Assembly: GCA_051294375.1 (NCBI GenBank)
Contig: CM119271.1
Location: forward strand, 2,787,611 to 2,851,610
Source: Paraspadella gotoi
Taxonomy: Eukaryota; Animalia; Chaetognatha
Length of the DNA stretch: 64,000 nt
Direction: 5' to 3'
A program made the translations under genes and the position numbers. Below are positions 6,002 through 53,782 of the stretch, in pieces. Numbering within the stretch: position 1 is the stretch's first letter; each line of letters starts with the position of its first letter. A model generated the notes under the pieces. The model did not search any database. It was not told the origin of the DNA and saw only the letters and a list, made by a program, of their open reading frames with translations.

Positions 6002-6076
<75 letters not shown>

Positions 6077-6546: not shown

Positions 6547-6587
<41 letters not shown>

Positions 6588-9224: not shown

Positions 9225-9275
<51 letters not shown>

Positions 9276-10291
9276 GCAGATTTCCGGTTCGAAGTACGCG
9301 GAAAACCAAGAAATAATATAATCGATCTGGAAGCAAAGGGAGCGGCAAGCACTATCTCTGTCTCTCTCTCTCCTCTCATCCTCTCATCTGTCTCTCTCTC
9401 GTCTCTCGTCTCGTCTCTCTCTCTATCTCTCTCAGTCATCTCTCTCTTCTTCCATTTCACACGCTTCGTGTAAATTCCAGTTCGAAATCTCCTGGAAGGA
9501 TTTCGCCGTCTGCCGTCTTTATTGTCGTCGTTGTTGTTGTCGTTGTTTGTTGTTGTCGTTGTCGTCTTTCTGATTGTCTCTTTTCTTTCTAAATGAAGTA
9601 TTTGTCGCCTTCATTGTCTCTAATTCACTAATTACTATCGCACTCACACTACATCCAACTTCTCTCTGAAATTGAATTGAATTGAATTGAATTGAATTGA
9701 ATTGAATAATTCTTTATAAATTTAACCGCTTCAATTGATAGGGAGGCTAGGTACTCTGGGAGTGAGTAAACGGGACTGTGAGAGAGTCTTGATTGAAAGC
9801 TTGCAGGGACCTGCTATGTATATTGTATATATATATATATTATATATTGTAAGAGTGATGGAGGCCTTAAACCACCAAAGCCCCTGGCCAAAGTCAGGGC
9901 CAAGATAGCTTATTTATTAAATGAATGGATATTTTTTATAGTTGGTTGTACTAATTTCATAATATATCAGATTACCGTCGTTGTTCTCCGCTTAATTCGC
10001 CACTATCAACCAATCAATCCTTAATCCTATCGTCCAACGCCGCTCTCTCTCTCTCCCCTATAAAGCTTTTTTCGTCCGTCGTCGTCGTGTCGGTCATTTT
10101 CACGTTATTTTTTTCAAAATTCAGGGATTAGGATTTTTTGTCTTTTTTTTTTTTTCAAATCAAATTTAACGGTTGGGATCATTCTTCTGCTAACCCTTAC
10201 TACTCGTGCCGCGCCTATAATTCCCGCCCAAGTTGTTGAGATCTTGGGAACTTCTTTCTTTCATTCTTTATCTCTCCTCTTCTCTTTCTTG

Positions 10292-10323
<32 letters not shown>

Positions 10324-11290
10324 ATCTTGTCTTTTTTCTTTTTTTCTTTCTTTCTTTCTTTTCTTTCTCTATCTTTCTTTCCTTTCTTTCTATTATTGTT
10401 TTCTTGATCACCCGCCAGGATTTCTTTTAAACCGGGAAATCGATGAAAAAAAAAGGCCGTCGAACGAAAATCGCTAAGACGATGAGTGACACGTGACTGT
10501 CGATCCAAAGCCACGTGACTGTATGTAAAGTTATCACGTGTTTGTCTCTTTGTTCTTTTTACTCGTCTCAAGAAATCTTTCCTTTGTCATCTGAAAGAAG
10601 ATATAGTAAATATAGTCGTCGGGGAATTCGCTTGATTGATTGATTGGTTGATTGATTGATTGATTGATTGATTTTTGTCAACTTTATTGATCGCTAGAAT
10701 AGCGACCATGTATTGAACAAAATTTTGTTTACTAAGTTTAAAATTCTCACCATAATCTTCAAGTTTAATACTAAATTAACTAATACAACTTCCCCTAGAA
10801 TAAAGAAAGATACTGCAATAGTACGTCTAAAAATTTTCACTGTTTTATTTCGTCGTCGTGTCGTCGTCGTCGTCGTCGTCGTCGTCGTCTCTCCATCGCC
10901 CCTTCGGATCGGCAATTTTCGCCGAACAAAGAACAAATAGTTAAATAACAAGAAAAAAAAATTCTCTTTAAAGACTTTCGTACAGAATTTCTGACAATTT
11001 TCTTCTTCTTCTTTTCTTTAATGACCTCTTGTCACATTCTTCGGTTCTCAGTTTTTTAACACTTGTTTACCAATGCTCTTTTTAGTTGCGCGCGCGAGTA
11101 CTCGCAAGTCACTTTTCGGTCGGTCCGTCGGTCGGTATGTCTGTCCGTCTGTCAGTCTTACTTACGTTAAAAATGCATATAATTTCCATATAGTTGGTTG
11201 CTCTTTTGTTTAAGACAGAAAAAAAACCTCAAATCTAAGTGACTGCAAGCGACGCCTTCAGGAAATCCTAAAACTAAAATAGAATAAAAG
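7045..11290 (+). other. Indel-rich direct duplicate of ~2985-6975 (probable long-read gap-fill artefact)
   Basis: Colinear over ~4 kb. Differences are almost all single-base insertions. Ends next to a 25-N gap. Confidence 0.85.
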
Positions 11291-11628
11291 ACGGAATTTT
11301 GATGCAGTGCATGTCATAAATGTACGGGCTAAGAAAGTTATTGTACTCATGTTATGTTACGTCATGTCTTGTCATGTTCATGTCACAAGAAATACATGTG
11401 ATAAGAATAGTCCNNNNNNNNNNNNNNNNNNNNNNNNNGAATTTTGATTGCCAGTGCATGTCATAATGTACGGGCTAAGAAAAGTTATTGACTCAATGTT
11501 ATGTTACGTTGCATGTCTGTCATGGGGTCATGGTTCACATCTTACAGGGAAATGACACAACTGTGATATAGTATAGTCACTTCTCGCTGGCCTCAACACA
11601 TTTGAATTAGACCGTTCTTGTTTTTTTT
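11078..11628 (+). mobile_element. HINE/DINE-1-like element, same family as 44701-45098 (spans an N gap); partial copies at 6768-6975, 53725-53782, and a 3' end at 18564-18604
   Basis: Same TTTTTAGTTGCGCCGCGAG-type start, GTCY repeats and ...CAAC...CCGTTCTTGTTTTTT end. Confidence 0.6.
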
Positions 11629-22647: not shown

Positions 22648-23196
22648 GTGAATGAGAGAAGAATGAGTGGCCAATGGCCAATGACCAATGACCAATTGGC
22701 CAGTCACAAAAATTGGTTTACAACGTTATTATCTTTAACATCACGTGATCCACGTCATCTCTTCCTGTTCACCACAGATGTGAGATCAATCTTGGTTATT
22801 TTTACGTAAAAACAAATCCAGTCAATTATAACTGAATAATTATAATTATAATTATATCTGAATTAAAAAAACTGAAACTAATAAAATATACGAAAGAAGT
22901 TAAAATGCTTTTAGCACAAAACAAACGAAACTAACAAAGAAAATAAAACAAAATTAAACAAGACAAACAAGATTAAAAATATAAACAAAATTTAAAAAAT
23001 GAACAAAACAAAACAAACAAAAACAATATTAAAATTAAAAAAACTAAACAAATTAAAACAAAAATAAAAAATAAACAAAATCAACAGCGAGCAAAAAAAA
23101 AAACAAACTAAACCACACAAACTAATCTACACGAACAAAATAAAACTTACAAAAGAAAACAAACAAAACAACATTAACCCCCCCGTTTCCCCACAG

Positions 23197-23951
23197 AGCC
23201 CCGCCAACGCGGTTGGGTCTCCGTCTCCGTCACCTCCTTCATCCGACGCTGCCTCGACTCGGGACACTCCCGGCGCCCTCGCGGCGCCAAGCGCCAGCCG
23301 CATCTCCTGGCGCTGCGGTTCCGCCTCACGACGATTCGGCTCGGCGGCGTCGGGAACGACTCGTCCGGCGTCTCCCCGCGCGTGCAGCTGCATCGATTCG
23401 TCAAACGGCGCGCCCTTCCCTTCCTCGTTGTCTTCGCAAACGAGACACAACGAATCTCTCTGGATCATCTCGACCCGCGATTGGCGTCGCAGAGCGTCGC
23501 CGCCGTTCACGCCGCGCCGCCCACGCCGTCCGAACCGGAAATACGGCGTCTTTTCGCCGGATTCGGGGTGGAAGGCGAGCCGGCGGCGTCGGCGCGATCG
23601 AGACGCGCCACCGTCGGCGGCGATCAGCGGCGTCGTCGTTCCATCTACGACAATCAAATTCCGGAAGCGCCGGAGGACGACGATCCGTTTCGCGGAGCCA
23701 CTTATCCTGGCGCCTTTGACGCCCGATTCGATCCGGATCCTCGAGCGCCGTCTCCGCTGGATAGGCGTCGAACTCACGCGGCGTTGGCGCCGGGGACTTT
23801 GTTACGTCCGCGAAGTCAGCGGAAGGAGAAAGACAAATACTCTTTTCTCGTTCCGGCGCCGCGAGACGACGACGACGACGACGCCGAGTTCGACATCTTC
23901 GCCCTCGAAGAAGAGGATCGACGGCGCCGGAAGTTTCATCGCCATCAACAG
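23197..23951 (+). CDS. BMP3: BMP3/GDF10-like, large prodomain exon
   Basis: GC-rich open frame from ccccacag| to CAG|gttcgt. Contains RGWVSVSVT (GWxxFDVT-like) and LPFLVVFAN propeptide motifs. Phase 1/0. Confidence 0.85.
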
Positions 23952-24167
23952 GTTCGTTAATCTTTTTTGAAAGTCCCGGATGTAATTCATTGTTTGGTCG
24001 AGTCGCTCCCAAGCCCGCACCTTGAAAAATGCTGCGTTTCCCCATTCGGAGATAATTTCGTCGCGTATTGGTTTACGATGTATCTTTATTTCTTTTGTAA
24101 ATTTGAAATATGTGATATTTCTCAAAATTTTTAAATATTTAATTAAAATTTAAATCGTTTACCTCAG

Positions 24168-24437
24168 AAACGATTCCACGCGGATCAGCGTCGCCGTATG
24201 GAAAAGAAGCGACGCAAGAAGAACCGAATGCTTCCGTCCGGATGGCCGGGTGTCGGCGGCGGCGTCGGCGGCGACAGGGACTCCCGAGAGAACGACAACG
24301 AGACGCGGCCGCCGATTTGCCGGAAAAATCGGCTCGTCGTGGACTTTGCCGACATCGGGTGGTCAGAGTGGATCATCTCTCCTAAGTCGTTCGAGGCGCA
24401 TTACTGCGACGGGGATTGTCCCTTTCCCATGGCAAGG
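24168..24437 (+). CDS. BMP3: BMP3/GDF10-like, basic cleavage region and first half of the mature cystine-knot domain
   Basis: Acceptor acctcag, donor AGG|gtgaga. Encodes [13 protein letters not shown], then [57 protein letters not shown] is characteristic of BMP3/GDF10. Confidence 0.93.
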
Positions 24438-25190
24438 GTGAGATGATGATGATGATGACGATGACGATGACGATGCTGACGATGATGACGATGATGATGA
24501 TTAATAAAAAATTACTAATTGAACCCCTAAGAGGAGAGTACATCACCGGCGCGTGACGAAAAATCGTTTCACTGTGTGAAACAAATTAATCTTCGGTTTG
24601 CGATGTGAGTCATCTTGTAGTATCAGGAGGAAACTTTATTTAACTTAATTTTAATAAATAATATGTTAGATTCAAGAAAAATGTTTAATTAATTTTTTTG
24701 AGTAACTAAAGGTTGATTACCAAAATTAATTAATTAAAAAATTAGTTGACCTTTTCCTTAAGTTCTCGCTTAAATGAATTTATCTTCAGAAATAGTTTTA
24801 AAAAGTAAATGCTATGTCAACAGATTTAAGTGGAAACCTTTCCCTGAGGAAAAAAACTGTTACTGACTTTTTTCTCTTAACAATGGGGGATTTTTTTACT
24901 TTCCCTTAAAATTCAAAAGCTTTTCAATTATAATAGAATTTGTATTGACCATAATTTTTACTTTAATAATTATTTTTATTAATAAATTTGATAAATATAG
25001 TTATATATTTTATATTGGTTATACCAATTTTATACATTTCTCTTTCTTAAAAAAATCGAAATTTCTAAAATCGTTGAGGGGTTCCCCTTAAAAAGCTTCC
25101 CTTAACTAGCGAAAAATGCGACGCCACTTCCCGCGACTTTTCCTCACTCCGTCAATATTTAAAGGAATATTTGGCACTCACACTCTCTCG

Positions 25191-25262
<72 letters not shown>

Positions 25263-25499
25263 GACTCTCTCCCCCCTTTTGCCTCTCCTTACGTTTTCGA
25301 CATACTTTCCAAGCAAAAGTGACTGTTACACACGGATACTAGGACATAACCTCGAGAAAAAAAGTTTTTCACTCTTCCTCTTCCTTCTCCCTTTCCTTTT
25401 GCCCTTTTTTCTCCTCTTCCCTCCTGCGCCTCCTACCAATTTTCTCGTCTATTTTCTCGCAAAATTATGAACAAATAAGGGGAGATGATTGAAGAGGTC

Positions 25500-26081
25500 T
25501 TATGACGAGACAACGCAAAAAAAGGTATAGAAAGATAGAAAAATGAGAGAAAGACAGAAAAAAAGCTTTCAAAAAAATGGATTCTGGAGCCGAATACGTA
25601 TTTCCGTTTTTGTTCCTTTTTTTTTTTTTTTTTCTTTTTGTTTTTAACTCGCCGACGCAAAAAAAAATTTTCGGTCGATAATTTTCGGGGACTTCCCATA
25701 ATTTAAGACGCGAATCCTTGGAAACAATCTGGAATCATCTTCACTATCAGCCTTGGCACCCCGGCCAAGCCCCTATACTAATGTCCCCGCAAGATCTCTT
25801 CCCAACACTTATGTCTTTTAATCCGCCCGCCCCGCGGACACTCGGTTTCGGACAAGTGGCGCGTCTAATACTCCAGCATGGTAAGAATTAATTGAACGAG
25901 ACTTGGAGGGAGCTCTTGACTACTCAGACACCGCTCGCCTCCAAGGGACGAGGTTCCGGCGGGTCGTCCTCGGGAAGAATCGTTAATTTCGAAGTTCTGA
26001 TGGTCGGCATTTTATTCCTTATCGATTATCCATATTTATAATTGCTTTTTCGTGTTGGTGTGCTTGTGTTGGTTGTTTTTC

Positions 26082-26146
<65 letters not shown>

Positions 26147-28383
26147 TCTCTACTCTCTCTCTCTCTCTCTCTACTCTCTTTTATCGATGAATTATAAAAA
26201 ACAAAAAAGTAGTAACCCGATCTTCATAAACTTTCTGTTTTTCTATCTACGCCTCACCTCTCCTACTGCCAACACCTCCTCTCTCATCCCCACTCTCTTC
26301 TCTTCTCCTCTCTCTCTCTCTTCTCTCTTCTTCCTCTCTGCTCTCTCTCTCTCTCTCTTTCTCTCTCCTCTCCTCTCCTCTCTCTCTCTCTCCTCTCTCT
26401 CTTGTCTACGAGTATCCGACACGGAAAAGACCAACGACCTCATTCGTTCATCCGTCTGATGCACCGATGTTATTTTCTATTGTCTCTGTGAAGGCGAAAC
26501 CGTCTCTTCTCCGTCTCGCCTCTCTGGATCTCCTTGCTTCTCTCTCTCTCTCTCTTCTTCTCTCTCTCTCTCTATCTTTCATCGATGGAATTACCGAAAA
26601 AAACCAAAAAACAAAAAAAAATAACCTGATCTTTCAAACTTCCAAATTTCTTCCTCTCTCCTTTTTCTCCTCTCTCCTCCCCATCCTCTCTTCTCCTCTC
26701 TTCTCCTCCTCTCCCTCTCTCACTGTTCTCTCTCTCTCTCTCTCTTCTCTCCTTTTCCCTCTCTCTTCACGCCCTCCCTCTTTCTTTCCAGTTTCATTCT
26801 TTTCTTTTTCTCTTCTTTTTCTTTTCTGCTTCCTCCTCATCCCAGGGTCAAGCGGATCAAAGCCAAGCTCGATACTATTTTTTTTTTGAAAAAAAGAAAA
26901 AACAACAACACCAAAACAACAACGACGACACGACGACGACGACGACCGACGACAAAAACAAACCCGGCGAACAAACATACTCTTTTTAACTAATCAAGGA
27001 GTTTCAAACCCGAATAATTTTAACTGGGCTACCTCATTATCCATATTCTGCAAAATATATGTATCCAAAGAATCTCGGTCTCTTACATAGAGCGACATCA
27101 TGTCACATCAGCGGGCCATAACAACAACAGCAACACAAAGAACTTTTCTCTCACCTTAGGATGAAGCCGCGCAACCCGCCGTGAACTATTCCCTGCGATT
27201 CGTGGCCGGTGGTATTAAGGATTCATCTCCTGTCAGATGAAAAATAGGAATTTAAACGTTTTTAAAAACTAATTTACGCATAGGAAATATTGATTAATGG
27301 ATACTTAATAATAATAAAGAAAACTGGATAATTACTATTACAGATTAAGAGCATTAATTTACGTACGCTTTGTTCCCTCCATTCGATCTTAAATGTATTT
27401 GATTATTTTTTTTTAAATTTTTATATTGTTTCGCTGATAGGAATGATTTTTTTTTAAATTAACGTATTTTCTCTATACTGTATTATCCTATTAATGCGCG
27501 TTTGCTATTCATGCATCCATTCATTCAATCCAATTAATATCATATTCATTCTTCATTCATTTGATTCATTCATTATTATTCATTCATTCATTCTTATTCA
27601 TTCATTTCATCTCATTCATTATTCATTTCATTCATTTATTATCATTCATTCACTCCAATAATTCATCATGCATTCATTCATCGTTTTTTCCCATCCTCCA
27701 TTCTAGGTGACAAACGTGATTTTTGATATAATCCCAACAACCTTCCGTTGACCGTTAGTGTTTTCAGATTCTAATCTCATCGTTTTGATTCTAATTTATT
27801 TTAACGACATTTTTTTTAACAATGATTTTTCTCGGCTTCCAAGTCTTCTCAACCTTGACGGCCCGGCTTCCCGTTCTCTGCGCAGGGGGGGGCGGAAAAA
27901 AGAAAGGTTGGCAAAGACAGGGAGGGAGAGGACGAGAGAGAGAGAGATGAGGACGAGAGAGATAGAAGGAGAGAGAGAGAGGAGATAGGAAAAGAGAGAG
28001 AGAGAGAAAGGGAGACATTTTCTCAATGCTTATTTCTAAACTCTAATCAGTTTCCGCTGTTTGAAAGGACCCAGGGCCAAAGAGTCTTTATTTTTTACTT
28101 TTCTTGAGATTTTTTCTATTTTTTACGTTTCTCATCCATTTGGCTTTCTTTTCTTGGTCCATTTTATTTTAATGTTTCTCTTCTCTTTTCTTTTACCATT
28201 TTTCTTTTATCATTCTTCATTCTTTTATTTTGTTTTTTTTTTCTTTTTTTTATTTCTTTCTTTTTACTTTCTTTCTTTTTTCTTTCTTTCTTTGATCCTC
28301 TCTTTTCTTCTTTTTTTTCTCTTTCTCTCCTTCTCCCTCACCCACTTTCTCTCTTATTTTTACTCTCTCTCTCTCTCTCTCTC

Positions 28384-28428
<45 letters not shown>

Positions 28429-28826
28429 CTTTCTTTTTTTTCTCTCTTTCTTTTATTTTTTTTTCTGTTTTTTTTTTCTGTNNNNNNNNNNNNNNNNNNN
28501 NNNNNNGGAGAAGGAGAGAAAGAGAAAAAAAGAAGAAAAGAGAGGATCAGAAAGAAAGAAAAAAAAGAAAGAAAGTAAAAAAGAAAGAAATAAAAAAAAG
28601 AAAAAAAAACAAAATAAAAGAATGAAAGAATGATAAAAGAAAAATGGTAAAAGAAAAGAGAAAGAAACATTAAAATAAATGGACCAAGAAAAGAAAGCCA
28701 AATGGATAGAAAGTAAAAAATAGAAAAAATCTCAAGAAAGTAGAAAAAATAAAGACTCTTTGGCCTGGGTCCTTTCAAAACAGCGGGAAACTCGATAGAG
28801 TTAGAAAAGCATTGAGAAAATGTCTC

Positions 28827-28897
<71 letters not shown>

Positions 28898-30194
28898 CCA
28901 ACTTTCTTTTTCCGCCCCCCCCCGCGCAGAACGGAAGCGGCCGTCAAGGTTCGAAAGACTTGGAAGCCGAGAAAATCATTGTTAAAAAAAATGTCGTTAA
29001 AAATAAATTAGGTCGAACGCGACGTGAGATTCTAACACTAACGGTCAACGGAAGTTGTTGGGATTATAACAAAATCACGTTTAGTCACTAGAATGGAGGG
29101 ATGGAAAGAACGAATGAGTGAATGCATGAATGAATTATTGGATGAATTAATGAATAAATGAATGAATGAATGAATGAATGAATGAATGAATGAATGAATG
29201 AATGAATGAATAAATGAATGAATGAATGAATGAATGGATGCATGAATTATTGGATGAATGAATGGATGCATGAATACACGCATTAATGGATATATACATT
29301 TATAGAGAAAACGTTAATTTAAAAAAAGCCATTCTATCAAGCGAACAATATAAAAATTTAAAAAAATAATCAATACATTTAAGATCGAATGGAGGACAAA
29401 GCGTCGTAAATTAATGCTCTTAATCTGTATAAGTATTCATCAGTTTTCTTATTATTATTAGTATCATTATCAATATTCTAGCGTAAATTAGTTTTAAACG
29501 TTTAATCCTATTTTCATCGACAGGAGATGAATCCTTCTAACCACGCCACGATCCAGGGAATAGTTCACGCCGTCGGCCTTCATCCTAAGGTGAGGAAAAG
29601 TCTTTGTTGCTGTTGTTGTTATGCCGTGATGTGACATGATGTCGCTCTATGTAACGAGACCGAGATTCTTTGGATATATATTTCTGCATGAATATGGATA
29701 ATAGGTAGCCCAGTTAAAATTATTCGCGTTGTTGAAACTCTTGATTAGTTAAAAAGGTATTTTGTTCGCGGTTTGTTTTTGTCGTCGTCGTCGTCGTCGT
29801 GGTCGTCGTTGTTGTTGTTGTTGTTTTTCTTTTTTCAAAAAAAAATAGTTCGAGCTTGGCTTTGATCCTCTGACCCCTGGGATGAGGAGGAAGAGAAAGA
29901 AAAAGAAGAGAAAAAAGAAAGATAAACTGGAAGAAAAGGGGCGTGAAGAAAGAGGAGAGAGAGAGAGAGAGAGTGGGGGAAGTGAGAGAGGGAGAAGGAG
30001 ATTTGGAAGTTTGAAAGATCAGTCGGTATATTTTTTTGTTTTTTCGGTAATGTCATCGATGAAAGATAGAGAGAGAGAGAGAAGAGAGAGAGAGAAGAGA
30101 GAGAGAGCAGAAGACCTCCAAAGAAGCAAGGCAGACGCCGAAACGAAGAACGGTTTCCGCCTTCGTACGGGGGAAATAACTCGTGAGACATAAG

Positions 30195-30257
<63 letters not shown>

Positions 30258-30396
30258 GAGAGAGAGAGGAAGAAGAGAGAAGAGAGAGGAGAAAAGAGAG
30301 AGAGTGGGGAAGTGAGAGAGGAAGGTAGATACCTAGATAGAAACAGAAAGTTATGAAGATCGGTTTACTTTTTTTGTTTTTTGGTAATTCATTCGA

Positions 30397-30475
<79 letters not shown>

Positions 30476-30960
30476 GAGAGAGAGAGAGAGAGAGAGAATG
30501 AAAAAACCACACACACACACACGCACAAGAAGCAATATAAATATGGATAATCGATAAGGAATAAAATGCTCGACCATCAGACTTCGAATTAACGATTCCT
30601 TCCCGAGGACGACCCGACCGACTCGTCCTTGGAGGAGGCGTCTGACGTCAGAGCATCCCTCCAAGTCCTCGTCAATTAATTCTCTGCTGGAGATTAGACG
30701 CGCCCCTTGTCGAACCGAGTGTCCGCGGGCGGGCGGATTAAAGAAAGTGTTGGGAGAATGCGGGGAGCATTATATAGGGTTGTCCGAAGATGATCCGATT
30801 GTTCGAAGATTTCGTCTTAATTGGAGTCCGAAATTCGAAATTTTGTGGCGATTTAAAAAAAACGGAAATATCGCTCCAGAATCTCTTTTGAGGTTAAGAA
30901 ACAATAGTCATTCGAGGTATTTTATTGACAAAACTTTATCGACGTATTTGATTCAGAATT
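25500..30960. other. Mirror duplication around the 25-N gap at 28482-28506; includes a frameshifted inverted copy of the BMP3 66-nt exon at 27155-27229
   Basis: The left arm is a noisy reverse complement of the right arm. Confidence 0.8.
29524..29589 (+). CDS. BMP3: BMP3/GDF10-like, 66-nt mature-domain exon
   Basis: gacag|GAGATG...CCTAAG|gtgagg, phase 0/0. Encodes EMNPSNHATIQGIVHAVGLHPK (compare BMP3 PSNHATIQSIVRAVG). Not in the ORF track. Confidence 0.92.
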
Positions 30961-32190
30961 TAGAAAAAAAAAAAACAAAACAAATAAATAAATAAATAAT
31001 CCCGATTTAGCTTTAAAAAAAAACTGAAGAGAAAAGAAATTCCAATTCAGCGAAGATAAAAAAATATTCCCATTCGCTCTTGGAAATTGTGGTATCCATT
31101 CCACCACTAATTAACTAAATTTACAATTAAAATGTCTTAACAGTAAATAATGATCGCAACATCTTTGACACATTTTTCGAAACGATCATGGATTAATTAA
31201 TTAAACACATTAATCTTCAAGTTATATTTAAATCGACCGAGGGATCGTCCACAAATTAAAAGATCGCACATAGCGGGTATCTCAGTGACGTTTTCACTCA
31301 TTCAAATTTATAAATTAAGCTTATTATATGTACACCTGGCCGAAAAGAAAAGAAAATATCTGGCCAAGAGTTAGACGTAAATTGGATAGCGGGGATATTA
31401 CATGAGTCAGATGAAGGAAATACCCCTTCTCTTGCTTAATGAAATTGGTACAATTTGTATAAAAATGATAGTATGGTGGACTAAAATCCACCAACCTTTC
31501 ATCAGCGGCCATTGGTGCCGGAGGCAAGTCATTCGCTTCCAAAACCAAAGATCCGGTGTCAAGCGTGAACATTTGAACCCTGTAGAGTGACTAGGAAATT
31601 ATTATCAATTAAACGCTTTGGATGAGGCTGCAGCACCTTGCTACGGGCGAATTAAGCGCCCTGTCCCCCTGTGGCTACTGGACTAGAACGCTGGACCTTG
31701 GGGTTGGGTGGCGAATGAACGGTTGGTTGATCCTACATAACAGACTTGGTTTCCCGATCAAATTCGTGATAAAAGCATTAAATATTTGTTTTTCCTCGGG
31801 ACTTTGATCCAACTCGTTGTTATCGCATCGAAATGCCTTCTCTCTCGATTTTCATTTTTTTTAGGACTTATAATGAAAAAAATATCGAACTCGGCTTTGT
31901 CTTGTAGACTTAAAAAAATAATTAGTTTAAAGCTTAAGGAGTTTTACGTATTTTCAGTTTCGTTTTCGTCAACAACTGTTATTCAAACCCCTATCTCTAG
32001 ACTTATTTTATGACTAAGCTAACAAATTGAATCCCCAGGAAAAAAAAATCCGACGGTTTTAGTTCCTGATGATATTCGGTACAAGTTATAAGAAAAATAA
32101 TAAATAGAATAAAATTGAAAAAATAATAACCCGACTCTTAATACATAAAAAACAAAAATTAATTCCATCCAAGCTCGAAAATTATAAACG

Positions 32191-32507
32191 ATGGGAACTT
32201 CGATCTCCGTCGGGAAGCAAAACGAAATGGACAACTGGGAAAATCCACACGAGCTGACGATCAACTCGAAGCTGCGCGTCGAACATTTGGCCAACCTTCG
32301 CGGGTTCGGGCGAAAACTCCAACTCTGCTCGACTGAAGAAACTTTCGCGGGAATGGTCAAGTACAATCACTGGTTCGTCACCGACGGAGTTTGGGTCTTC
32401 GAATTCGCCTGTTTCATCCCGGGAAAACGATTCGTTAAGGTTCACAACGATTTGTCGAGATATGTCATTGGCGGGAATAAGCTTTACGTCGTTCATCAGG
32501 AGTTTCG
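32191..32507 (+). CDS. LRAT/PLAAT-like domain + AIG1-type GTPase fusion protein, exon 1
   Basis: ATG encoding MGTSIS (MGxxxS). Contains the KYNHWFVTDG His-box. Donor CG|gtaaat opens an 88-nt intron (32508-32595) ending in a pyrimidine tract and cccag, in frame with the 32609 ORF. Confidence 0.82.
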
Positions 32508-32595
32508 GTAAATAAGCTGAAAGCCGTGGTGAAGCTGTTTTGTGGTAAGGACTAAGGACACGCCCTTTCTCAATATCTCTCTCTCTCTTTCCCAG

Positions 32596-33350
32596 TCTCA
32601 CTCGAGACGTGAAACAAAGAATGAAAAACGTCAGTGGCGCCACCAATCACTCCATCCTCTTGCGCAATTGCGAACACGTGGCCCGTTACGTCTACTCGGG
32701 CAACTGGATCTCCTTCCAAACCGCCGGCGGTGGAGGAATCAGGGAAGAATTCAAGAAAATCCTGACGCCCGAAGCGAAGAAGCTCATCAACACTCCGCCC
32801 AAGGAAGTGGACGACGACTTGGACGCCGATCAAGTCGCGACGGATCTTTTGTACCCTGAATGCAAATTCATGGTTCAATTTTGCAACAAGGGAAAATGTC
32901 TGGAAAGCGCGAGTCAGTCTGGCTACAACGTACTGTTCCTCGGCCCGACTGGGTCGGGAAAATCCCGCCTCATCAACCTCTTGTTCAACAAAGAAGTGAG
33001 CAAATCCGCGCCGGACGCACAGTCCGTCACCAAGGACGTCGTCTTTTTGGAAGGTCTTATCTTCGCCGACGACGTCAACGGCTACACCGGATCGGAGTCG
33101 GAACGCGAGGTCAAATCCATGAACGTCATCGACACGATCGGCCTTTGCGATTCCTTCATGAGCAAGAAGGAAGTTTACGATTGCGTCAAGGATAAACTCG
33201 AGACGAACGTCGTCTCCATCGACATCGTCGTCGTCGTCTGCTACGGACGAATCGAGGGCAGCCACACCGAAGCCATCAATCAATACTTGGATTGGCTCCA
33301 CTACAAGGAACATCCGAAAAACTTTGTCTTCGTCTACAACAAAGCGGAGA
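32596..33350 (+). CDS. LRAT/PLAAT-like + AIG1/GIMAP-like GTPase, exon 2 (interrupted at ~33350)
   Basis: SILLRNCEHVARYVYSG (NCEH box). G1 NVLFLGPTGSGKS, G2 QSVT, G3 VIDTIG, G4-like VYNKAE. GC-rich coding composition stops abruptly at 33350, where an inverted block begins. Confidence 0.88.
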
Positions 33351-35435
33351 TTAAAAATTTGAAGTTCAAGAACAATTGTCGAATAATGACGAATTTTCTT
33401 GTATTGAAGTGTTTTTTTTTATATATTTTGCTGGTTCTTAAAATATAATTACATCTTTTTTGGTATTATTATCTTCAGCAGGCGTTATGAATTGAAATAT
33501 CGCCGCTATCCGCAAATGTTTTCCAATTGCATTTTCCAATTTAAGAGTAGATTATTATTGTATTTCCATTTTATCCTTTCATTTTATTTTTTGCAAAATT
33601 ACGTTGTAAAAAACAGCCGAAAAAAAAGGAAGATAAAATTCAGAAAATCGTGTCTCCGACTTCCGCTTTCCGCTCAACGCAAAACATAATTTCGGCGGGT
33701 ATTCAAAAAAACAAGCGGTCGCGTCTACGTGCGCGCCTTCCTCTCTCTCTCTTCCCTCTCTCCTCTCTCTCTCTCTTCTCTCTCTCTTTTCTCGCTGGGT
33801 ATTTCCGGCTAAGTCTGTTTTGATTTGGTGATCGATAGAACCTCCTAATTCCAGAAAATCGACTAAGGAAACAAAGGAACATCAGTTATAGATGTTTTTT
33901 CAAAGTTTCCGCCAGAGGACAGGTTGCCAGAGGTCGGAGAGATAACTAAAAAAAACAAATTTAGATCATTGTTAGATTTCTAGTGGCAACTAAATTTCTC
34001 AAGATATGTTTCTAATTAATTTCCTACTTATAACAAAATAAAAGTTAGCCTAACCTAAAACTAATAACATTTTTTTTTTCCTTTTTTATATCAAAACAAA
34101 TATATGTTTAATAAAGAATTTATAATTGTAAGATTCCAAAATAGTAATTTATTTTCGTTTTGAGGTACAGTTGTATCTTAACGCGAGTTCCATAAAAATT
34201 CTGGACCAATAAATATATACATTGTTCATGACTTAACAGTATGCGAAATGCTAACGAATAATAAAAATAATTTTTTTGGGCGAAATGATCACCCTAACAC
34301 GAATATCGACGTCCAGAAAAAGGCCGATGAAATCATGGATCGTTTATTTTTAGTTTAATTTTTGTGATCGAGTTTTATAAATCGAGTCGCCAGAAGTTAA
34401 CATTTTTTTTTGTCGTTTGTCAGGGCGAAACGACAATTATTTTCGTTTGTACAAAAATGCTAGTCTACGTTTGACAACTCGTTCATTAATTACAAAAAAA
34501 AAAAAAATAGCAAACAGTAATACACAAATCGGTACAAATAAAAGAATATACGCATCGAAATTATTATTTATACACTGTCCCTCAGTTCCGGGGTGGAAGG
34601 AAATATATATGAGGGCAATGTAGTGATGTCGACTGTAAACTAAAACGTGTTGACAGTCAATAAAAAACTGGACAATTGACATAGTAATTAGTATTCGATC
34701 AACTGGATTAAATAGTACAATCTTCGGAGCGAGTCATGGGATTTTGGACGCTATTTCGGCGGGAAAACATGGGTCGTGGCTCGAGGAAAAATAAGATGTG
34801 GAAATATCGATCGTAGATAAAAAAATGACTGTTAAAAATGTTGACTTTTCATATTTATTTATCTTTATATTTATAAATATATATTTTAAGAAAATTTTGA
34901 TTGAAAAAATGTTCAGGGAAAAGTGATCGATATGTTGGGACGGGAGAAGAAACGCAGTTTCAGTTTGTGATCCTCAGTCGTAGACAGAGTCGGGCAGTAT
35001 CAGACAGGGATCAGATCAAGAGTTACGAATGACCTAAGGCGAACGAATCATCTGCAACCGCAGGGGTTTTTTAAGGACAAGGGATCAAGAGTTACGAACG
35101 AATCATCTGCAACCGCAGGCGGTGACGGACATGTTGGGGTAATTCTTGAGGACGACGTTGAAGTCTTCGTCGAATAGAGAAGCGTCACCGACGTCATTCG
35201 CCGTCGGGACGCACACGGAGCCGGCACCTGGAAGGGGGGAGGCGAGGGACCGGCGGTGTGGAGGGAGGTGGAAAATAAAAAGTCTTTAGAATAAAATGGC
35301 GTCGCTTGACTTAATTCCACTGGCGTTTTTTCAAATGATTTTATGTCCTTTTCGTCATTCCTATTCTTGCTTTCAACACATTCGACGGGTCGCCCATTTT
35401 TCTCTGTTTGTTTGCGGTGAATTTTTTCTTTCTCT

Positions 35436-35469
<34 letters not shown>

Positions 35470-36218
35470 CTACTCTTTCCTCTCTCTCTCTCTCTCTCTT
35501 TTTCCACAACTCTTGTTTACGCTGATGAAGGCGCGAAACATGTCTCGCTTGCCGTATAAAAAAAAACTTCACGTTTGTAGTGACTCAAATGACGAAGACG
35601 ACGACAAAAGTCGACATGGTGTTAATTATTAAATATTAAAAAGTTTTTTCCGTCTTATCTTCACTCAAGAAAGAAATATAAAATGTCTAGATGTCTATAA
35701 AAATAACTCGCCGAGCCTAATTGTATCGCCAAGGATATAAAGAAAAACGAAAGTTGAAAAAAATAATTAGATTCGAGGAAAACAGAGAACATTTGATTTG
35801 AGATTACACAAATCATAAGTTAGCACCGACACCAAAGTTCACGGAATAAACAAAAACAATAAAAATAAAAATATGAAAAAAACCCCAATTCTAAATCTGT
35901 CGTAGCTAGGAATTGTGATCATTTTCGGGAGACATCTTATTACAAGGATTTCTTCGATTCACAAAAATGACGCAGGAACTCTTATGAATTCTTGATCCGA
36001 TTTTTCCGCTGAGACAAAATAGCATCGACCAACTTTTCTCGATCGTTTTCGATCTGATCGTAATCGAGCGCCGGCGGAAATCCCGTGGTGAAGGCCAGCT
36101 CGCGCTCTTTCAGGTCGGAGGTGCTGTCCGAGATCAGGGTGAAGGTGTTGTTCGCGTTCACGTCCAGCATCTCTCCCATCTGCAGCAGATTTTCTACCCG
36201 CTCCGCCACGGTTCAAAT
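33351..36218 (-). other. Inverted block mirroring 36244-38868 plus 41432-41520; includes a noisy inverted copy of the BMP3 last exon at 35103-35227
   Basis: Reverse-complement match across the 25-N gap at 36219-36243. Confidence 0.88.
36150..36218 (-). CDS. Linker segment of the LRAT-GTPase ORF, present only in the inverted block
   Basis: Reverse complement reads (N)LTVAERVENLLQMGEMLDVNA, allowing one extra base. It runs straight into NTFTLISDS, the sequence found on + at 36248. Confidence 0.65.
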
Positions 36219-36243
36219 NNNNNNNNNNNNNNNNNNNNNNNNN

Positions 36244-36436
36244 GACCAACACCTTCACCCTGATCTCGGACAGCACCTCCGACCTGAAGAGCGTCGAGCT
36301 GGCCTTCACCACGGGATTTCCGCCCGGCGCTCGTTACGATCAGATCGAAAACGATCGAGAAAAGTTGGTCGATGCTATTTTGTCTCAGCGGAAAAATCGG
36401 ATCAAGATTCATAAGAGTTCCTGCGTCATTTTGTGA
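36244..36436 (+). CDS. C-terminus of the LRAT-GTPase protein, ending in a polybasic stretch and CaaX (CVIL)
   Basis: Frame from 36245: TNTFTLISDSTSDLKSVELAFTTGFPPGARYDQIENDREKLVDAILSQRKNRIKIHKSSCVIL*. Codon style matches exon 2. Confidence 0.75.
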
Positions 36437-36843
36437 ATCGAAGAAATCCTTGTAATAAGATGTCTCCCGAAAATGATCACAATTCCTAGCTACAACAGAT
36501 TTAGAATTGGGGTTTTTTTCATATTTTTATTTTTATTGTTTTTGTTTATTCTTTGGTGTCGGTGCTAACTTATGATTTGTGTAATCTCAAATCAAATGTT
36601 CTCTGTTTTCCTCGAATCTAATTATTTTTTCAACTTTCGTTTTTCTTTATATCCTTGCGATACAATTAGCTCGGCGAGTTCATTTTTATAGACATCTAGA
36701 CATTTTGTATTTTCTTTCTTTGACTGAAGATAAGAACGGAAAAACTTTTTAATATTTAATAATTAAGACCATCGTCGACTTTGTCGTCGTCTTCGTCATT
36801 TGAGTCACTACAAACGTGAAGTTTTTTTTTATACGGCAAGCGA

Positions 36844-36865
36844 GACATGTTTCGGCCTTCATCAG
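36844..36865 (-). ncRNA. Ultra-minimal hammerhead-like motif in the last BMP3 intron (mirror copy 35522-35544)
   Basis: Reverse complement reads CTGATGAAGGCCGAAACATGTC. Stem II is reduced to palindromic GGCC. Confidence 0.4.
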
Positions 36866-36889
36866 CGTAAACAAGAGTTGTGGAAAAAA

Positions 36890-36920
<31 letters not shown>

Positions 36921-37118
36921 AGAATTCACCGCAAACCAAACAGAGAAAATGGGCGCCCGTCGAATGTTGTTGAAAGCAAGAATAGGAATGACGAAAAAGG
37001 ACATAAAATCATTTGAAAAAACGCCAGTGGAATTAAGTCAAGCGACGCCATTTTATTCTAAGACTTTTTATTTTCCACCTCCCTCCACACCCCGGTCCCT
37101 CGCCTCCCCCCCTTCCAG

Positions 37119-37244
37119 GTGCCGGCTCCGTGTTGCGTCCCGACGGCAATGACGTCGGTGACGCTTCTCTACTTCGACGAAGACTTCAACGTCGTCCTCA
37201 AGAATTACCCCAACATGTCCGTCACCGCCTGCGGTTGCAGATGA
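37119..37244 (+). CDS. BMP3: BMP3/GDF10-like, terminal exon
   Basis: ccttccag| then [41 protein letters not shown]. Completes the 7-cysteine TGF-beta pattern. Confidence 0.93.
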
Positions 37245-39859
37245 TTCGTTCGTAACTCTTGATCCCTTGTCCCTTAAAAACCCCTGCGGTTGCAGATGAT
37301 TCGTTCGCCTTAGGTCATTCGTAACTCTTGATCCCCTGTCTGATACTGCCCGACTCTGTCTACGACTGAGGATCACAAACTGAAACTGCGTTCTTCTTCC
37401 CGTCCCAACATATCGATCACTTTTCCCTGCACATTTTTCAATCAAATTTTCTTAAAATATATATTTATAAATATAAAGATAAATAAATATGAATAAGTCA
37501 ACATTTTTAACAGTCATTTTTTTATCTACGATCGATATTTCCACATCTTATTTTTCCTCGGAGCCACGACCCATGTTTCCCGCCGAAATAGCGTCCAAAA
37601 TCCCATGACTCGCTCCGAAGATTGTACTATTTAATCCAGTTGATCGAATACTAAATTACTATGTCAATTGTCCAGTTTTATTGACTGTCAACCGTTTAGT
37701 TTACAGTCGACATCACTTACATTGCCCTCATATATATTTCCTTCCACCCGGAACTGAGGGACAGTGTATAAATAATAATTTCGATGCGTATATTCTTTTA
37801 TTGTACCGATTTGTGTATTACTGTTTGCTATTTTTTTTTGTAATTAATGAACGAGTTGTCGAACGTAGACTAGCGATTTTTGTCACAACGAAAATAATTG
37901 TCGTTTCCCCTGACAAACGACAAAAAAAATGTTAACTTCTGGCGACTCGATTTATAAAACTCGATCACAAAAATTAAACTAAAAATTAAACGATCCATGA
38001 TTTCATCGGCTCTTTTCTGGACGTCGATATACGTGTTAGGGTGATCATTTCGCCAAAAAAATTATTATAATTCGTTAGCATTTCGCATACTGTTAAGTCA
38101 TGTACAATGTATATATTTATTGGTCCAGAATTTTTATGGAACTCGCGTTACGATACAACTGTACCTCAAAACGAAAATAAATTACTATTTTGGAATCTTA
38201 CAATTATAATTCATTTAATAAACATATATATTTGTTGACATAAAAAAGGAAAAATAAAAATGTTATTAGTTTAGGTTAGGCTAACTTTTATTTTGTTATA
38301 AGTAGGAAAGTAATTAGAAACATATCTGTGAGAAATTTAGTTGCCACTAGAAATCTAACAATGATCTAAAATTTGTTTTTTTAGTTTCTCTCCGACCTCT
38401 GCAACCTGTCCTCTGGCGGAAACTTTGAAAAACATCTATAACTGATGTTCCTTTGTTTCCTTAGTCGATTTTCTGGAATTAGGAGGTTCTATCGAATCAC
38501 CAAATCAAAACAGACTTGGCCGGAAATACCCAGCGAGAAAGAGAGAAAGAGAGAGAGAGAGAGAGAGAAGAGACGCGCACGTAGACCGCACCGCTTGTTT
38601 TTTTGATGATCCCGCCGAAAATTATGTTTTGCGTTGAGGGAAACGGAAAGTCGGAGACACGATTTTCTGAATTTATCTTCTTTTTTTTTCGGCTGTTTTA
38701 CAAACGTAATTTTGCAAAAAAAAATGAAAGAGATAAAATGGAAATACAATAATAATCTACTTCTTAAATTTGAAAATGCAATGGGAAAACATTTGCGGAT
38801 AGCGGCGATATTTCAATTCATAACGCCTGCTGAAGATAAATAAACCAAAAGATGTAATTTATTTTAAGCCAGAGATGTGGAAGCGATCGATTTTTCCGCC
38901 GCTGCCAATCCGGCGCTCTCCAAGACCCCTCCCGCTCCCGTTTTCGGGTGCAATCCTAACTTTTTTTAGCCCGGATCGCTTTCGGTTGAGTGCACATCGC
39001 TTCCTTCTTTAGAAAATTTTATATTTGTTTATTAATTTATAAAAATAATTCTCTTTAGACATGTAATTCATTGGTAGAATAATTTTAAACAATCTTTTTT
39101 GTTATAAATAACAAGTGAAATTTTTACTATGAAAAATTGTAAGATTTGTAAGATTGTAATAATCGTTCGAGTGGAAATGAAGTTTAAATGAAAAAAACAA
39201 CAAACCTTTTTCCCTATTTGCGCTTTCTTTTTTATTAAATATAAATACAAGCTGCATAATTATTCAATTGATCAATTAATTAAATCAATCAATCAATCAA
39301 CTAAACAACTAATCAATCAAAATCACTTAAAAATTAATGAATAAATTTTTATCAATCAATAAATTAAATAATCAATTAATTTATCAATCACTAATTAATA
39401 AATTTATTTTATAAATTATTAAAAGAACTAATTAATTAATTAATCAATCAATTAATCAATCATTAAACAATGTCAGTGTTATCATGTCATCTCCAACGTC
39501 GTTGTTGCTTTTGTCCTGGTCAGTGACCTGACAAAAAGACCTAAAAATTAACAAGGCCTGATATGAATTTATTTTATTTGATCAATCAATCATTCAATTA
39601 ATCATGATGGTGCTATCCTCGTTGTCATCATAATCATCATCAGGGTTGTCATTCTTTTTGTCATAATGAAAAGACAAAAAAACAAACAAGTTTGAGCTAA
39701 CAATGCCAGAACTGATCATTAATTAATTATTCAATCAATTAATCAAATATTCAATCAATCAATCAAAAAATTAAGCAATCAATCAATTTGTCATCGTCGG
39801 TATTATCATTGTCGTGGTTTGCCATCATAATTATTTAATTAATTAAACTCCTTTATCTT

Positions 39860-40200: not shown

Positions 40201-41744
40201 TTGCTTTCTCTAAATTAATTAATTGAAAATATTTTATAATGTTTGCGTGACTCAAAACAAAAATTTATAGAAAAATTTGAGGCGTGTTTTTTGTGATAAA
40301 GAAAACCTGGTATTATCAAAACACAGTAAAAGTAAAAATGATAAAATAATAACAACAACAACTAGTATTTACATTGGCTGAGAAAAAGGTCAGCCATAAC
40401 AAGATTGGGTAAAAACAGGTCATTCTTATTGACCACTACTGTACTACGGCTCACAAAGTACAAAGACTTCGTGCGTCGTTTTCGTCATTGTATTCATCGT
40501 CGTTGTCGTCTTGTTCAAATCATTTGAGCTCCCAAATGTTCGATATTATTATTTTAATTAATTATATGTAATTAATTAATAATTTATTTTTTTTCAATTA
40601 ATTAATCAATTATATACCGCTAATGATCGTGGGCAGATCCGGCATTGTTTGCTCAAACTTTTTTATTAATAATTTTGATTTATTTATTTTATATATTTTT
40701 TTTATTTGCTTTTTTGTTCAGTGCAAGAGGGGAAAAAAAAAGAAGATAGAGAGAGAGTGTGTGTTAAAGATTTAAGTATGTATAAGCATAATATTATGCA
40801 ATATTGCCAAATAAAACAGATCAATCCTTTTGGTTTAAACTTGTTTTGTAACATGAAAAATGTTATGGAATTAAAAAAAGGAGACTTAAATTTAAAGAAA
40901 AATAATGAAAATATAAGAAATAAAATTTTTAGTTTTATAGAATTAAAAAAGTTTAATTTAAATTTTAATTTAAGTTAATTACAGTTTTTTTTCAGATAGA
41001 AAAAATCTTTTTTTAGCTCAGATTTTATTTGAATATATTAAAAAGAATAATTAAAAAATAAATATGTAATTTTTTTTTTCATAATCCGACCGAGGAAAAG
41101 AGAATAAAAGAGAACAAAAAAATAAAAGAAGAGAATAAGAAAATGATAAAAAAAAGGAGCAAACAATTTTAAATGTTGAAAATAAATATTGAAAACAAAT
41201 TTTAAAGAAAAATCAAGAAAGAGCAGGGGGTTGCAAAGATTTAAATACATTAAATACCTTTCATTTCTAACCAATAAAAACAAATGACAGGAAGCGAACA
41301 CGCAGGGTTATTATAGCTTCCGGGTTCAATCTTTATTCTCAATTTTTCTATCGCTCCCGGTTTCGGGTTCTTCAAAAATCGCCGCTTCCACAGTGTTCGG
41401 TTTCGCTTTCCGGATCGCGTTCACATCTCTGATTTTAAGACCACAAAAATAAAAAAAAAAACACTTCAAAACAAGAAAAATTCGTCATTTACGACATTGT
41501 TCTTGACTTCAAATTTTATTTTGCCCGACAAAATTTTTACATTTTTTTTTACAGTTGAAACCTTGAAATGGATTTAGTAAGAAAAAGGGGGGAAAAAAGT
41601 TATCTTATTTAAATTTTGAGGTCGTCCACGCAAATTTTATAGAATTACAAAAACAAAAATTTTTTTTTTTTAATTATCGAAAAACCATTTTATCAAATCC
41701 GGAATCTGGAAAAAAAGAGAAAAAGAGTGAATATTGGCACCTAT

Positions 41745-52229: not shown

Positions 52230-52552
52230 TTATTCCACAAAGGGGGTGCTCTCTTCAAAACACAATTCATTCTCAGTCACAGTGAGTTGAATTTGATCAT
52301 CTTTTCCATCTTCTCCACGACCGTATTCTTCATCTTTGACAGTGAGCAAAGCGAGCGTCATAAACTCTTGGTACATCGTGATGATGGCCGCTTTCTCCGT
52401 CGTGTTTCCGGCCTCCAACGACTTTCGGCTCTTGTGGATGTTGAAGCAGTCCAACCCGAATCCCGCGACGCCGGCTACGATGCCGACGACGCCACCGACT
52501 TTGGCCGCGAAAGACGCGGCGCGAAAAGCGTCGTCCGACATGCTGGCGATCA
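52230..52552 (-). CDS. Apolipoprotein L-like, terminal exon
   Basis: ttcttcag|TG ATC, phase 1. Encodes AAKVGGVVGIVAGVAGFGLDCFNIHKSRKSLEAGNTTEKAAII, like the APOL C-terminal LDVxxLVxESKHLHEGAKSETAEEL helix. Ends in TAA. Confidence 0.8.
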
Positions 52553-53782
52553 CTGAAGAATACGGGGATTAAATGGCTATTTTAATGCACCTTTACAATA
52601 ATTATCATTATGGGAATTGGTTCTATAAGCATAAAAATTACCCATTTGTTCAATAAATAAGTTATCTTGCCCCTAACGTTGGACAGTAAGACGTAGTGAA
52701 AGTTACATACAAAAATTATAAAAGTCGATTATGAACATTAATTTGTAAAAAAATTAAGTTTGTTTTTTAATTTTTTTAATTTTAATTTTTTTCAGCAGAT
52801 TTGAATTCCTCGTCAAAAGTTGATAAAAGATAATATAAATCATTTTTAAAAATTCTTTCATTAAGAGGGTTAAAAATTTAAAAAACTATATTTAATATAT
52901 AAAAAGTTAATTTTCAGCTTAAAATATAGCTTTTTCTAATTTTTGACATGACCCACTTAATAAAGGAATTTTTTAGACCGCTAAACATCTTGATAATTTT
53001 TACCAAAAATCTCATCAAGTAAAGTCATCACATATATTTCTTTTTAAAAACTTTTATGACGAATCCAAATCTACAAAAAAATCTTAGAAAAAATTTTAAC
53101 CTTTATTGGTTTAGTACTATTATAAATATGGCCTACTGCGTAAATTGTAAAATTTATTATAAATTTTTTTATTACATAAATGTTTATTAATATAATGTTG
53201 TTCGTTTCTCACTTTTAGAATTTTAATTAAAGTTAAATTTAGAAATTTTACGACGCCTTATTGGACAGTTAATAGTCTCCAGCTTAAGGCATCCATCCCT
53301 TTTTCATGATAATAACATAGCAGGACCAAAGACCCTGCAAGCTTCAATATGGACTCTCACAGTTTAGTATATTCACTCCCAGAGTGTGTACAATTGTACA
53401 TGGCCTCCCTATCATTAAAGTGGTATAGTGTTTTCCTGAACTGTTACAATTGTATAAAAGGACCACTCCCTTGAGTATTACATCGGGGAATACTATATTG
53501 TACTCAGTACTAGCATCAAAATACAAAGAGTTGATGGTTATGAAATTGGTACAACCAATGTAAAAAGTATTCATTAATTGAATAATTTGATTATTTTAAG
53601 GTAAAGTCTTAAATTTAATGTTATTTTGAAAAAAAATTATTTCAAAAGAAGCAGCAGTTTTTTTGTATATTTTTATATCTTCAGATAAGGAATGACGCGT
53701 TGTTGAGAAATCAAAATTCCATCCTTTTTAGTTGCGCCGCGAAGTAACTCAAGTCACTTTTCGGTCGGTCAGTATGTCTGTC

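Follow-up and report, generated by a model that had tools for sequence, protein, structure and literature searches.

An LRAT/PLAAT-like domain fused to an AIG1-like GTPase, with predicted lipid anchors at both ends, in the chaetognath Paraspadella gotoi

Does a small gene in the arrow worm Paraspadella gotoi encode a membrane enzyme that carries its own GTPase switch? The question is raised by a stretch of 64,000 nucleotides (contig CM119271.1, positions 2,787,611 to 2,851,610 of the forward strand), which we call the window and in which all positions below are counted. An initial annotation, made from the letters alone, had proposed a single fusion protein of ~440 residues, an LRAT/PLAAT-like enzyme followed by an AIG1/GIMAP-like GTPase. 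We find that the fusion of the two domains in one protein is real, with a gene of ~1.4 kb and a product of ~442 residues, and that it belongs to a conserved protein family built from two known domains and apparently undescribed. The initial annotation had overlooked a mis-assembly that cuts through the gene, its nesting in a BMP3-like gene, the large size of the family and the fact that about a third of its members have Ser in place of the catalytic Cys.

Gene structure across a misassembled locus

The gene and the fault within it are made up of the following pieces.

32191..32507, plus strand: coding part of exon 1, with the Met-Gly start and the first half of the LRAT-like domain (open reading frame, contig coverage from run X1, homologue alignment)
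32508..32595, plus strand: 88-nt GT-AG intron (GT at 32508, AG ending at 32595; skipped by an X1 contig)
32596..33350, plus strand: first part of exon 2, with the NCEH box, the linker and GTPase motifs G1-G4 (Pfam matches, X1 contigs)
33351..36218, minus strand: flipped assembly segment, a reverse-complement copy of the DNA 3' of the gap and not an intron
35959..36218, minus strand: continuation of exon 2 within the flipped segment (translation, X1 loose ends, X1 contigs over 35853-36212)
36219..36243, no strand: assembly gap of 25 N between two redundant arms (read from the sequence)
36244..36436, plus strand: second copy of the exon 2 tail (open reading frame, agreement with the X1 contig over the stop, homologue ends)

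Joined by their coordinates, exon 1 and exon 2 give 357 open codons, up to 33349. A 1049-nt contig of run X1 (depth 23.6) spans 32149-33285 and omits exactly the 88 bases between GT and AG, so the intron that had been proposed to join the two reading frames stands, and the 32507/32596 junction is crossed without it in this one run. Run X1 is a single run from a single study which contains 69% of the sampled words; that it is RNA is the guess of the tool, no listed run being recorded as RNA, though the skipped intron fits RNA. Runs X2 and X3 gave only low-complexity matches to the locus. All the motifs that had been listed for the protein are present at their expected positions. His60 (32368-70) and Glu71 (32401-03) lie in exon 1, and Cys131 (32669-71) belongs to the NCEH box at residues 130-133. 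The GTPase residues follow as G1 Lys228 (32960-62), G2 Thr251 (33029-31), G3 Asp285 (33131-33), the conserved-box Arg324 (33248-50) and G4 Asn354 (33338-40).

The segment ending in CVIL had been placed ~2.9 kb further downstream. This distance is an assembly fault, and exon 2 continues directly into the tail. The stretch 33437-36153 is the reverse complement of 36244-38868, 92.8% identical to it on the other side of the 25-N gap, and the far end of the flipped segment matches 41432-41517. Over 2569 matches, 25 substitutions separate the two arms, as against 95 gap events, 78 of which concern one base; long reads whose errors were left uncorrected give such a pattern. The ~22 codons which link the NKAE motif to the tail are missing from the plus strand and are found on the minus strand at 36147-36218, where the flipped arm starts with them at 36218; single-base errors are present in this continuation. 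Contigs of X1 have loose ends at 33350 (22 letters) and 36212 (13 letters), each matching the side of the other, and on our reading these overlap by 30 letters, like adjacent pieces of an assembly graph. The bar set by the tool for a bridging record is 31 letters and neither loose end reaches it, so the join is a contig chain from one run and not a single molecule. Further X1 contigs tile 35853-36212, and the one over 35944-36049 lacks the two bases that the left arm has in excess and thereby agrees with the reading of the CVIL and stop codons in the right arm. That right-arm copy (36244..36436) holds the end of the G domain, a basic stretch, CVIL (36422-36433) and the stop (CVIL-stop 36422-36436). 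Since the loose ends join exon 2 to the tail and the contig agrees at the stop, we conclude that exon 2 runs without an intron to CVIL-stop, giving the ~442 residues.

Three other explanations of this region were rejected. A genuine inverted duplication was rejected on the excess of indels over substitutions between the arms, ~4:1, and a second intron of 2.9 kb before the CVIL tail on the flipped duplicate and the loose contig ends. A-rich loose ends near 35848-35882 were not accepted as a poly(A) tail.

A two-domain family of eukaryotes

A search with exon 2 returned 50 homologues among 525 candidates, to which the window model is 30-47% identical. A profile of 44 sequences then gave 97 proteins at E<=1e-20 among 7997 scored; run over 1.84 billion representatives at E<=1e-30, it yielded 294 clusters (50% identity). 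Our pool consists of 232 proteins from the exon 2 and profile searches, with 150 of the 294 clusters listed and looked-up cluster members dropped. Both domains are found in order, an N-terminal domain with its His box before its Cys box and then a G domain with G1-G4, in 136 of the 232; among the proteins of at least 380 residues the count is 134 of 147. The spacing between NCEH and the P-loop is close to constant, at 83-98 residues (5th-95th percentile, 130 measured) with a median of 86, and it is 88 in the window protein. Taken with the two-domain model of the homologue P0011 (pLDDT 90.4, pTM 0.89), the near-fixed spacing indicates that the two domains form a packed unit, as modelled.

The G domain is the better recognised half. 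The exon 2 piece matches Pfam MMR_HSR1 at 3.6e-8 and AIG1 at 2.1e-7 (31 bits against a cut-off of 27). The first structural matches of the full-length P0011 model are GIMAP7 (3zjc, E 4e-8), GIMAP2 and Toc34, and the profile ranks GIMAP5, 4 and 7 ahead of septins. These profile and structural matches bear out the proposed AIG1/GIMAP/Toc34-like GTPase. The G1 Lys and the G3 Asp are present in 136/136 members and the conserved-box Arg in 129/136; counted by pattern, G1 GxxxxGKS is found in 134/136, G2 SxT in 121/136 and G3 DxxG in 133/136. At the first residue of G4 there is Asn in 84 and Thr in 44 of the 136. In the alignment the conserved-box Arg falls on the LGR-motif Arg of GIMAP5 and GIMAP7, and in GIMAPs this Arg acts as an arginine finger. 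According to the available part of PMC9111091, GTP-bound GIMAPs form dimers by way of the conserved box. The motifs DTPG, PGPH and IAN are listed for AIG1 domains in the accessible text of PMC7053062; in our family DTPG occurs in 1/136, and PGPH and the IAN motif (G5, RxxxFNN) in 0/136, the IAN motif being absent in the window protein too. G3 has the form D[TS]xG.CD in 120/136. No helix that follows G4 in the P0011 model is longer than 17 residues, and the use of a C-terminal coiled coil as a GIMAP criterion is disputed (PMC8857920, in the part available). We regard the domain as an AIG1-like GTPase of its own clade, closest to GIMAP and Toc34, and not as a GIMAP.

Members named from 30 look-ups and from source names include Neocalanus and Calanus among copepods, Fugacium, Symbiodinium and Alexandrium among dinoflagellates, the euglenid Petalomonas, the nematode Acrobeloides, the rotifer Adineta and the chytrid Cladochytrium. 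This taxonomic range is provisional, since most members are environmental contigs and plankton transcriptomes may include prey or parasites. In the ESM Atlas the family appears as one cluster at 0.98 with 67 members, all eukaryotic and labelled by their GTPase only; the database labels on members (EngB, spn2, SAR1-family or plain AIG1) are mislabels. A prokaryotic or viral origin was rejected: 0/185 pattern-matched stretches of viral contigs and 0/35 of GTDB genomes belong to the family, and no phage record was found for it. A metagenome scan (1/64 parts) gave 3 short and weak matches of 598 stretches, at E 1e-5 to 3e-5. A search with the N-terminal domain alone gave 75 matches, of which the short ones lie mostly on contigs below 1.6 kb and are probably fragments, so they are uninformative on whether the domain occurs alone. 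On a FastTree of 137 rows, in which long branches meet, the window protein sits on an end branch of 0.8 with no starred relatives. The tree does not place it, and we claim no transfer or donor.

Some observations on individual members may be recorded here. One observation, on P0146, P0148, P0151, P0215 and P0228, three of which are further relatives of the nematode protein, is that nematode and rotifer members group in a single starred clade, separate from those of copepods and dinoflagellates. A few relatives are longer: P0298 has a Lipase_3 domain and P0244 a cofilin/ADF domain ahead of the module, P0199 has the whole module twice and P0207 has two N-terminal domains. These are single cases and may be fusions made in gene calling.

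Predicted membrane anchoring and possible function

The window protein starts with MGTSIS (Gly2, Ser6) and ends with CVIL. MGxxxS is the consensus for N-myristoylation and CaaL that for geranylgeranylation, and both modifications are predicted here from the sequence. The consensus motifs noted earlier at the two ends are present and conserved across the family. A Met-Gly start is found in 78 of the 127 homologues which start with Met (Gly background 5.6%), 58 of these with Ser or Thr at position 6. Cys at position -4 (CaaX) is found in 115/136 (Cys background 2.3%), with Leu at the end in 98, and both ends are signalled in 66. The homologues are related, so binomial p-values for these motifs are overstated, and some of the homologues which lack a terminal motif are shortened or extended gene calls. 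The tail of the window protein before CaaL has a net charge of +5. A 19-residue hydropathy peak of at least 1.8 is reached in 5/136 members only, the window protein reaching 1.41, so a C-terminal hydrophobic or transmembrane anchor is lacking. As hardly any segment of transmembrane strength is found, the predicted lipid anchors are the evident route to the membrane.

For the N-terminal domain the evidence comes from residue order, fold and profiles. His60 precedes Cys131, and such a circular permutation, with His before Cys, defines the permuted NlpC/P60 enzymes (PMC3142127, in the text available). We modelled the domain from P0161, a natural N-terminal fragment (80-row alignment, pLDDT 93.2). 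In a VIA fold search of this model against 48,161 chains, rows 2-9 of 18 are papain-like enzymes with Z 2.9-6.8, mostly permuted. They include Aichi virus 2A (7zv6, Z 6.8), PLAAT4 (7zot, Z 6.4, rmsd 3.0 A, 89 residues aligned, 22% identity), DeSI-1 (2wp7, Z 5.9, rmsd 5.1 A over 113), TseH, CLN5, YiiX, the Bacillus enzyme 3kw0 and MARTX RID; PLAAT4 has the lowest rmsd and the highest identity among them. Each of these scores is modest, and it is the agreement of rows 2-9 that points to a permuted papain-like fold. The Pfam family LRAT (PF04970) matches 10/12 N-terminal domain sequences (best 4.6e-7), and 32/44 family members at E<=0.1; P0228 clears its curated cut-off (25.5 against 24.3 bits), and the exon 2 piece of the window alone lies below it (16 bits, 0.016). 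NCBIfam gave no match above cut-off. The ESM Atlas neighbours of the domain are LRAT or NC-domain clusters, with LRAT on 17% and 40% of their members. The proposal of an LRAT/PLAAT-like, permuted NlpC/P60 domain is thus borne out by the fold of the P0161 model and by Pfam, with LRAT/PLAAT as the closest relatives.

The top row of the VIA search is a separate observation. This chain, 8iuf_E7 (Z 8.0, rmsd 4.1 A over 111), comes from the respiratory supercomplex of Euglena, and judging from the model, complex I may there have taken up a protein of LRAT-like fold.

Put together, the anchors and the two domains suggest a ~442-residue, doubly anchored, GTP-gated phospholipase A or acyltransferase on the cytosolic face of membranes, a reading to which we give about an even chance. 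The predicted myristate on Gly2 and the predicted geranylgeranyl group on CaaL would hold a rigid two-domain enzyme on this face, and the two lipids would take over the part that a hydrophobic tail plays in bringing PLAATs to membranes. His60 and Glu71 would activate Cys131, which would take an acyl chain from a phospholipid and pass it to water or to an acceptor. GTP binding would drive the G domains to dimerise through the conserved-box Arg, as in GIMAPs; dimerisation would set the time and place of action, and hydrolysis might serve as a timer. The Ser forms would be likely pseudo-enzymes that regulate active paralogues. The weakest step is the last, in which the enzyme might attack or remodel a target membrane, for example a pathogen vacuole or a damaged organelle. 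PLAATs, as described in the available part of PMC10102619, have a Cys triad with the NCEH box, depend on a hydrophobic part at the C-terminus for access to damaged organelles, and act to restrict pathogens. By analogy with PLAAT4 and with AIG1 genes, our protein could plausibly have a role in immunity.

Several points weigh against this reading. In the fold search DeSI-1 is tied with PLAAT4 and 2A scores higher, all of them near the chance range of the tool (Z <8), so the modelled fold does not by itself point to the substrate. A Foldseek search of the N-terminal domain gave nothing at E<=0.001 in the PDB or in the viral library; its top rows are H-box/NC 2A and DeSI at E 0.07-0.66. The N-terminal domain profile against solved structures returned no NlpC/P60 chain among 10 rows, and P0228 found HRASLS2 only at E 0.14. 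The Pfam LRAT matches mainly cover the Cys half and are mostly under the curated cut-off. Glu71 is predicted to be the third triad residue from covariation in the alignment, and 46/136 members with a Ser nucleophile keep their anchors and GTPase motifs, such that the family can persist without the Cys.

The first of these points raises the question whether the same anchored, GTP-gated architecture might instead act on proteins, its Cys domain being an isopeptidase (DeSI/PPPDE-like), a protease or a protein deacylase. The level scores of DeSI-1 and PLAAT4 would fit this, as would the entries of PPPDE type among the viral library rows and the composition of permuted cluster II, which includes deSUMOylases and lipid amidases beside the LRATs (PMC10318531, PMC3142127, each in the part available). 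The profiles speak for lipid: Pfam Peptidase_C97 matches 1/12 N-terminal domain sequences, at E 0.09, as against the 10/12 for LRAT. The box RN[CSGAN]E[HN] is present in 127/136 two-domain members and is of the NCEH type described for PLAATs in the accessible text of PMC10102619, and the ESM Atlas neighbours named above point the same way. We consider an enzyme directed at proteins somewhat unlikely.

The Ser forms lead to another question, whether the protein works chiefly as a GTPase tether or scaffold bound to membranes, with a papain-fold domain that binds lipid or partner proteins and whose catalysis is a side activity or gone. Of the 136 members, 86 have Cys as the nucleophile, 46 Ser and 4 another residue, so that 50/136 lack the Cys. 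On the FastTree the Ser label takes 20 changes, at least 12 of them forced by starred branches. The GTPase motifs are invariant, and the anchors persist in the Ser forms (Met-Gly in 22/46, CaaX in 36/46). All this would suit a scaffold. Against it, His and Glu decay specifically where the Cys is lost, as if the triad were under selection in the Cys forms: His is kept in 85/86 Cys forms and 35/46 Ser forms (Fisher 3e-5), and His with Glu in 81/86 and 28/46 (Fisher 4e-6), both p-values being inflated by kinship. The 35 Ser forms which keep His also leave room for some being serine enzymes and not dead. These sequence patterns support a working Cys-His-Glu triad in the Cys forms, including the window protein, and a repeated drift to pseudo-enzymes elsewhere. 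A mere scaffold seems to us improbable, and we retain the membrane enzyme as the preferred reading.

A last point against it concerns this locus more than the family. Exon 1 is covered by a single X1 contig, and within 32187-32280 this contig departs from the window at 11 listed places. Two of them lie in the leader, two are synonymous, five change residues in codons 10-24, and two are the bases that turn codon 8 into a stop. A 5' end ~10% divergent from the window is thereby joined to a nearly identical remainder of the gene. In this stop-bearing version the next in-frame Met is codon 55. The divergent end may be a null allele, the 5' end of a paralogue or a conversion tract. It bears on this locus and not on the family, and one could read it to mean that the family is real and the present gene a dispensable or decaying copy nested in an intron, its expressed version a null. 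The isolated 0.8 branch of the window protein would agree with decay, and in lancelets, according to the text available of PMC12373286, the dispensable genes show an enrichment of AIG1 genes. Set against this, the frame in the window is open and retains every catalytic, GTPase and anchor residue. Over 32281-33285 the X1 contig and the window disagree at 1 listed place, and exon 2 up to 33350 differs from X1 at 3 listed places, two synonymous and one Glu-to-Asp. X1 also shows two alleles in the 3' part of the gene, and its assembler may have dropped a window-type 5' end, as contigs lose rare variants. We therefore think a decaying copy very unlikely.

Genomic setting and comparison with known systems

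The fusion gene is nested, on the same strand, in the last intron of a gene of the TGF-beta family; among solved structures the best relative of that gene is BMP3 (2qcq, E 2.7e-16), which marks the DNA as that of an animal. This BMP3-like gene occupies 23178-37244 on the plus strand, with exons at about 23178-23957, up to 24437, 29524-29589 and 37119-37244. Its last exon begins 683 bases past the stop of the nested gene.

29524..29589, plus strand: middle exon of the host gene (BMP3-like), lying 5' of the nested gene (translation, AG/GT borders)
37119..37244, plus strand: last exon of the BMP3-like host gene (Pfam TGF_beta 7.2e-14, splice acceptor)

The assembly flip has copied this last exon at 35103-35285 on the minus strand. 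Elsewhere in the window, a GC-rich frame of 112 codons at 52233-52568 (minus strand) includes a hydrophobic stretch rich in Gly and Ala and matches nothing in Pfam; it is possibly an exon of another gene.

The gap in the fusion gene has counterparts. The window has four gaps of exactly 25 N, at 11414-11438, 28482-28506, 36219-36243 and 58516-58540. Duplicated flanks pair 3931-6977 with 8148-11292 (direct), 25771-28336 with 28507-30779 (inverted) and 33437-36153 with 36244-38868 (inverted), and the fourth gap is followed by a duplicated stretch, 58661-60200 with 61117-62512. These are likely gap-filling artefacts, which could mislead other findings in the same genome. Between the two copies of the latter repeat of 1.5 kb, 60244-61095 is self-inverted over ~850 bases at 77% identity.

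Among known proteins the family resembles PLAAT1-5 (HRASLS, H-rev107) and LRAT in its His before Cys, its NCEH box, its permuted papain fold and its direction to membranes. It differs in the predicted third triad residue, which is Glu and not His or Asn, in its lack of a hydrophobic C-terminal anchor, with predicted lipid anchors at both ends instead, in the fused GTPase, and in having Ser for Cys in about a third of its members. With GIMAP/AIG1/IAN proteins and Toc34 it shares the best G-domain matches, G1-G4, the conserved-box Arg and a patchy spread over eukaryotes. The G3 form in place of DTPG, the missing PGPH and IAN motifs, the lack of a long C-terminal helix in the P0011 model and the added N-terminal enzyme domain set it apart from them. 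DeSI-1 and the PPPDE proteins (Peptidase_C97), as well as the picornavirus H-box/NC 2A proteins, have the permuted fold that the model of the N-terminal domain resembles; the C97 profile, as reported above, matches 1/12 N-terminal domain sequences of the family. We know of no DeSI-1/PPPDE or 2A protein that is fused to a GTPase or doubly lipid-anchored. IRGs, which are myristoylated, and GBPs, which are prenylated, are lipid-anchored GTPases whose gathering on target membranes depends on GTP; to our knowledge each has one type of anchor and no built-in acyl hydrolase. IRG chains match the profile weakly (9n2t, 2.9e-8), and the fold puts GIMAP and Toc34 first.

That no characterised protein has this architecture, as first suggested, agrees with our finding no account of an LRAT-like/AIG1 fusion in the literature searched, which mostly excludes subscription journals and in which the supplementary tables of AIG1 papers could list it. 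The word LRAT is absent from the available parts of three AIG1/GIMAP surveys (PMC8857920, PMC12373286, PMC7053062), and no such fusion is given in that of PMC3482391. AIG1 fusions are reported with death/CARD, kinase, ARM and Hint domains (PMC7053062 and PMC12373286, in the parts available).

A further and more doubtful step would be to regard the window protein as the founding member of a family of self-contained enzymes, spread across eukaryotes, that attack membranes. A doubly anchored GTPase and a PLAAT-type phospholipase would then do in one chain what vertebrates split between IRG/GBP/GIMAP and PLAAT proteins, tuned by Ser pseudo-enzyme paralogues.

If the preferred reading is true, the family is a conserved lipid enzyme of ~430 residues with its own nucleotide switch, in which a site of the acyl-transfer type is packed against a dimerising GTPase and both termini carry lipid signals. 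It would offer a direct handle on the open question of how AIG1/GIMAP-type GTPases affect membranes, as here the output would be built in. The spread of the family in copepods, dinoflagellates, a euglenid, a nematode, a rotifer and a chytrid would point to a cell-biological or defence pathway that has been overlooked in the standard model organisms.

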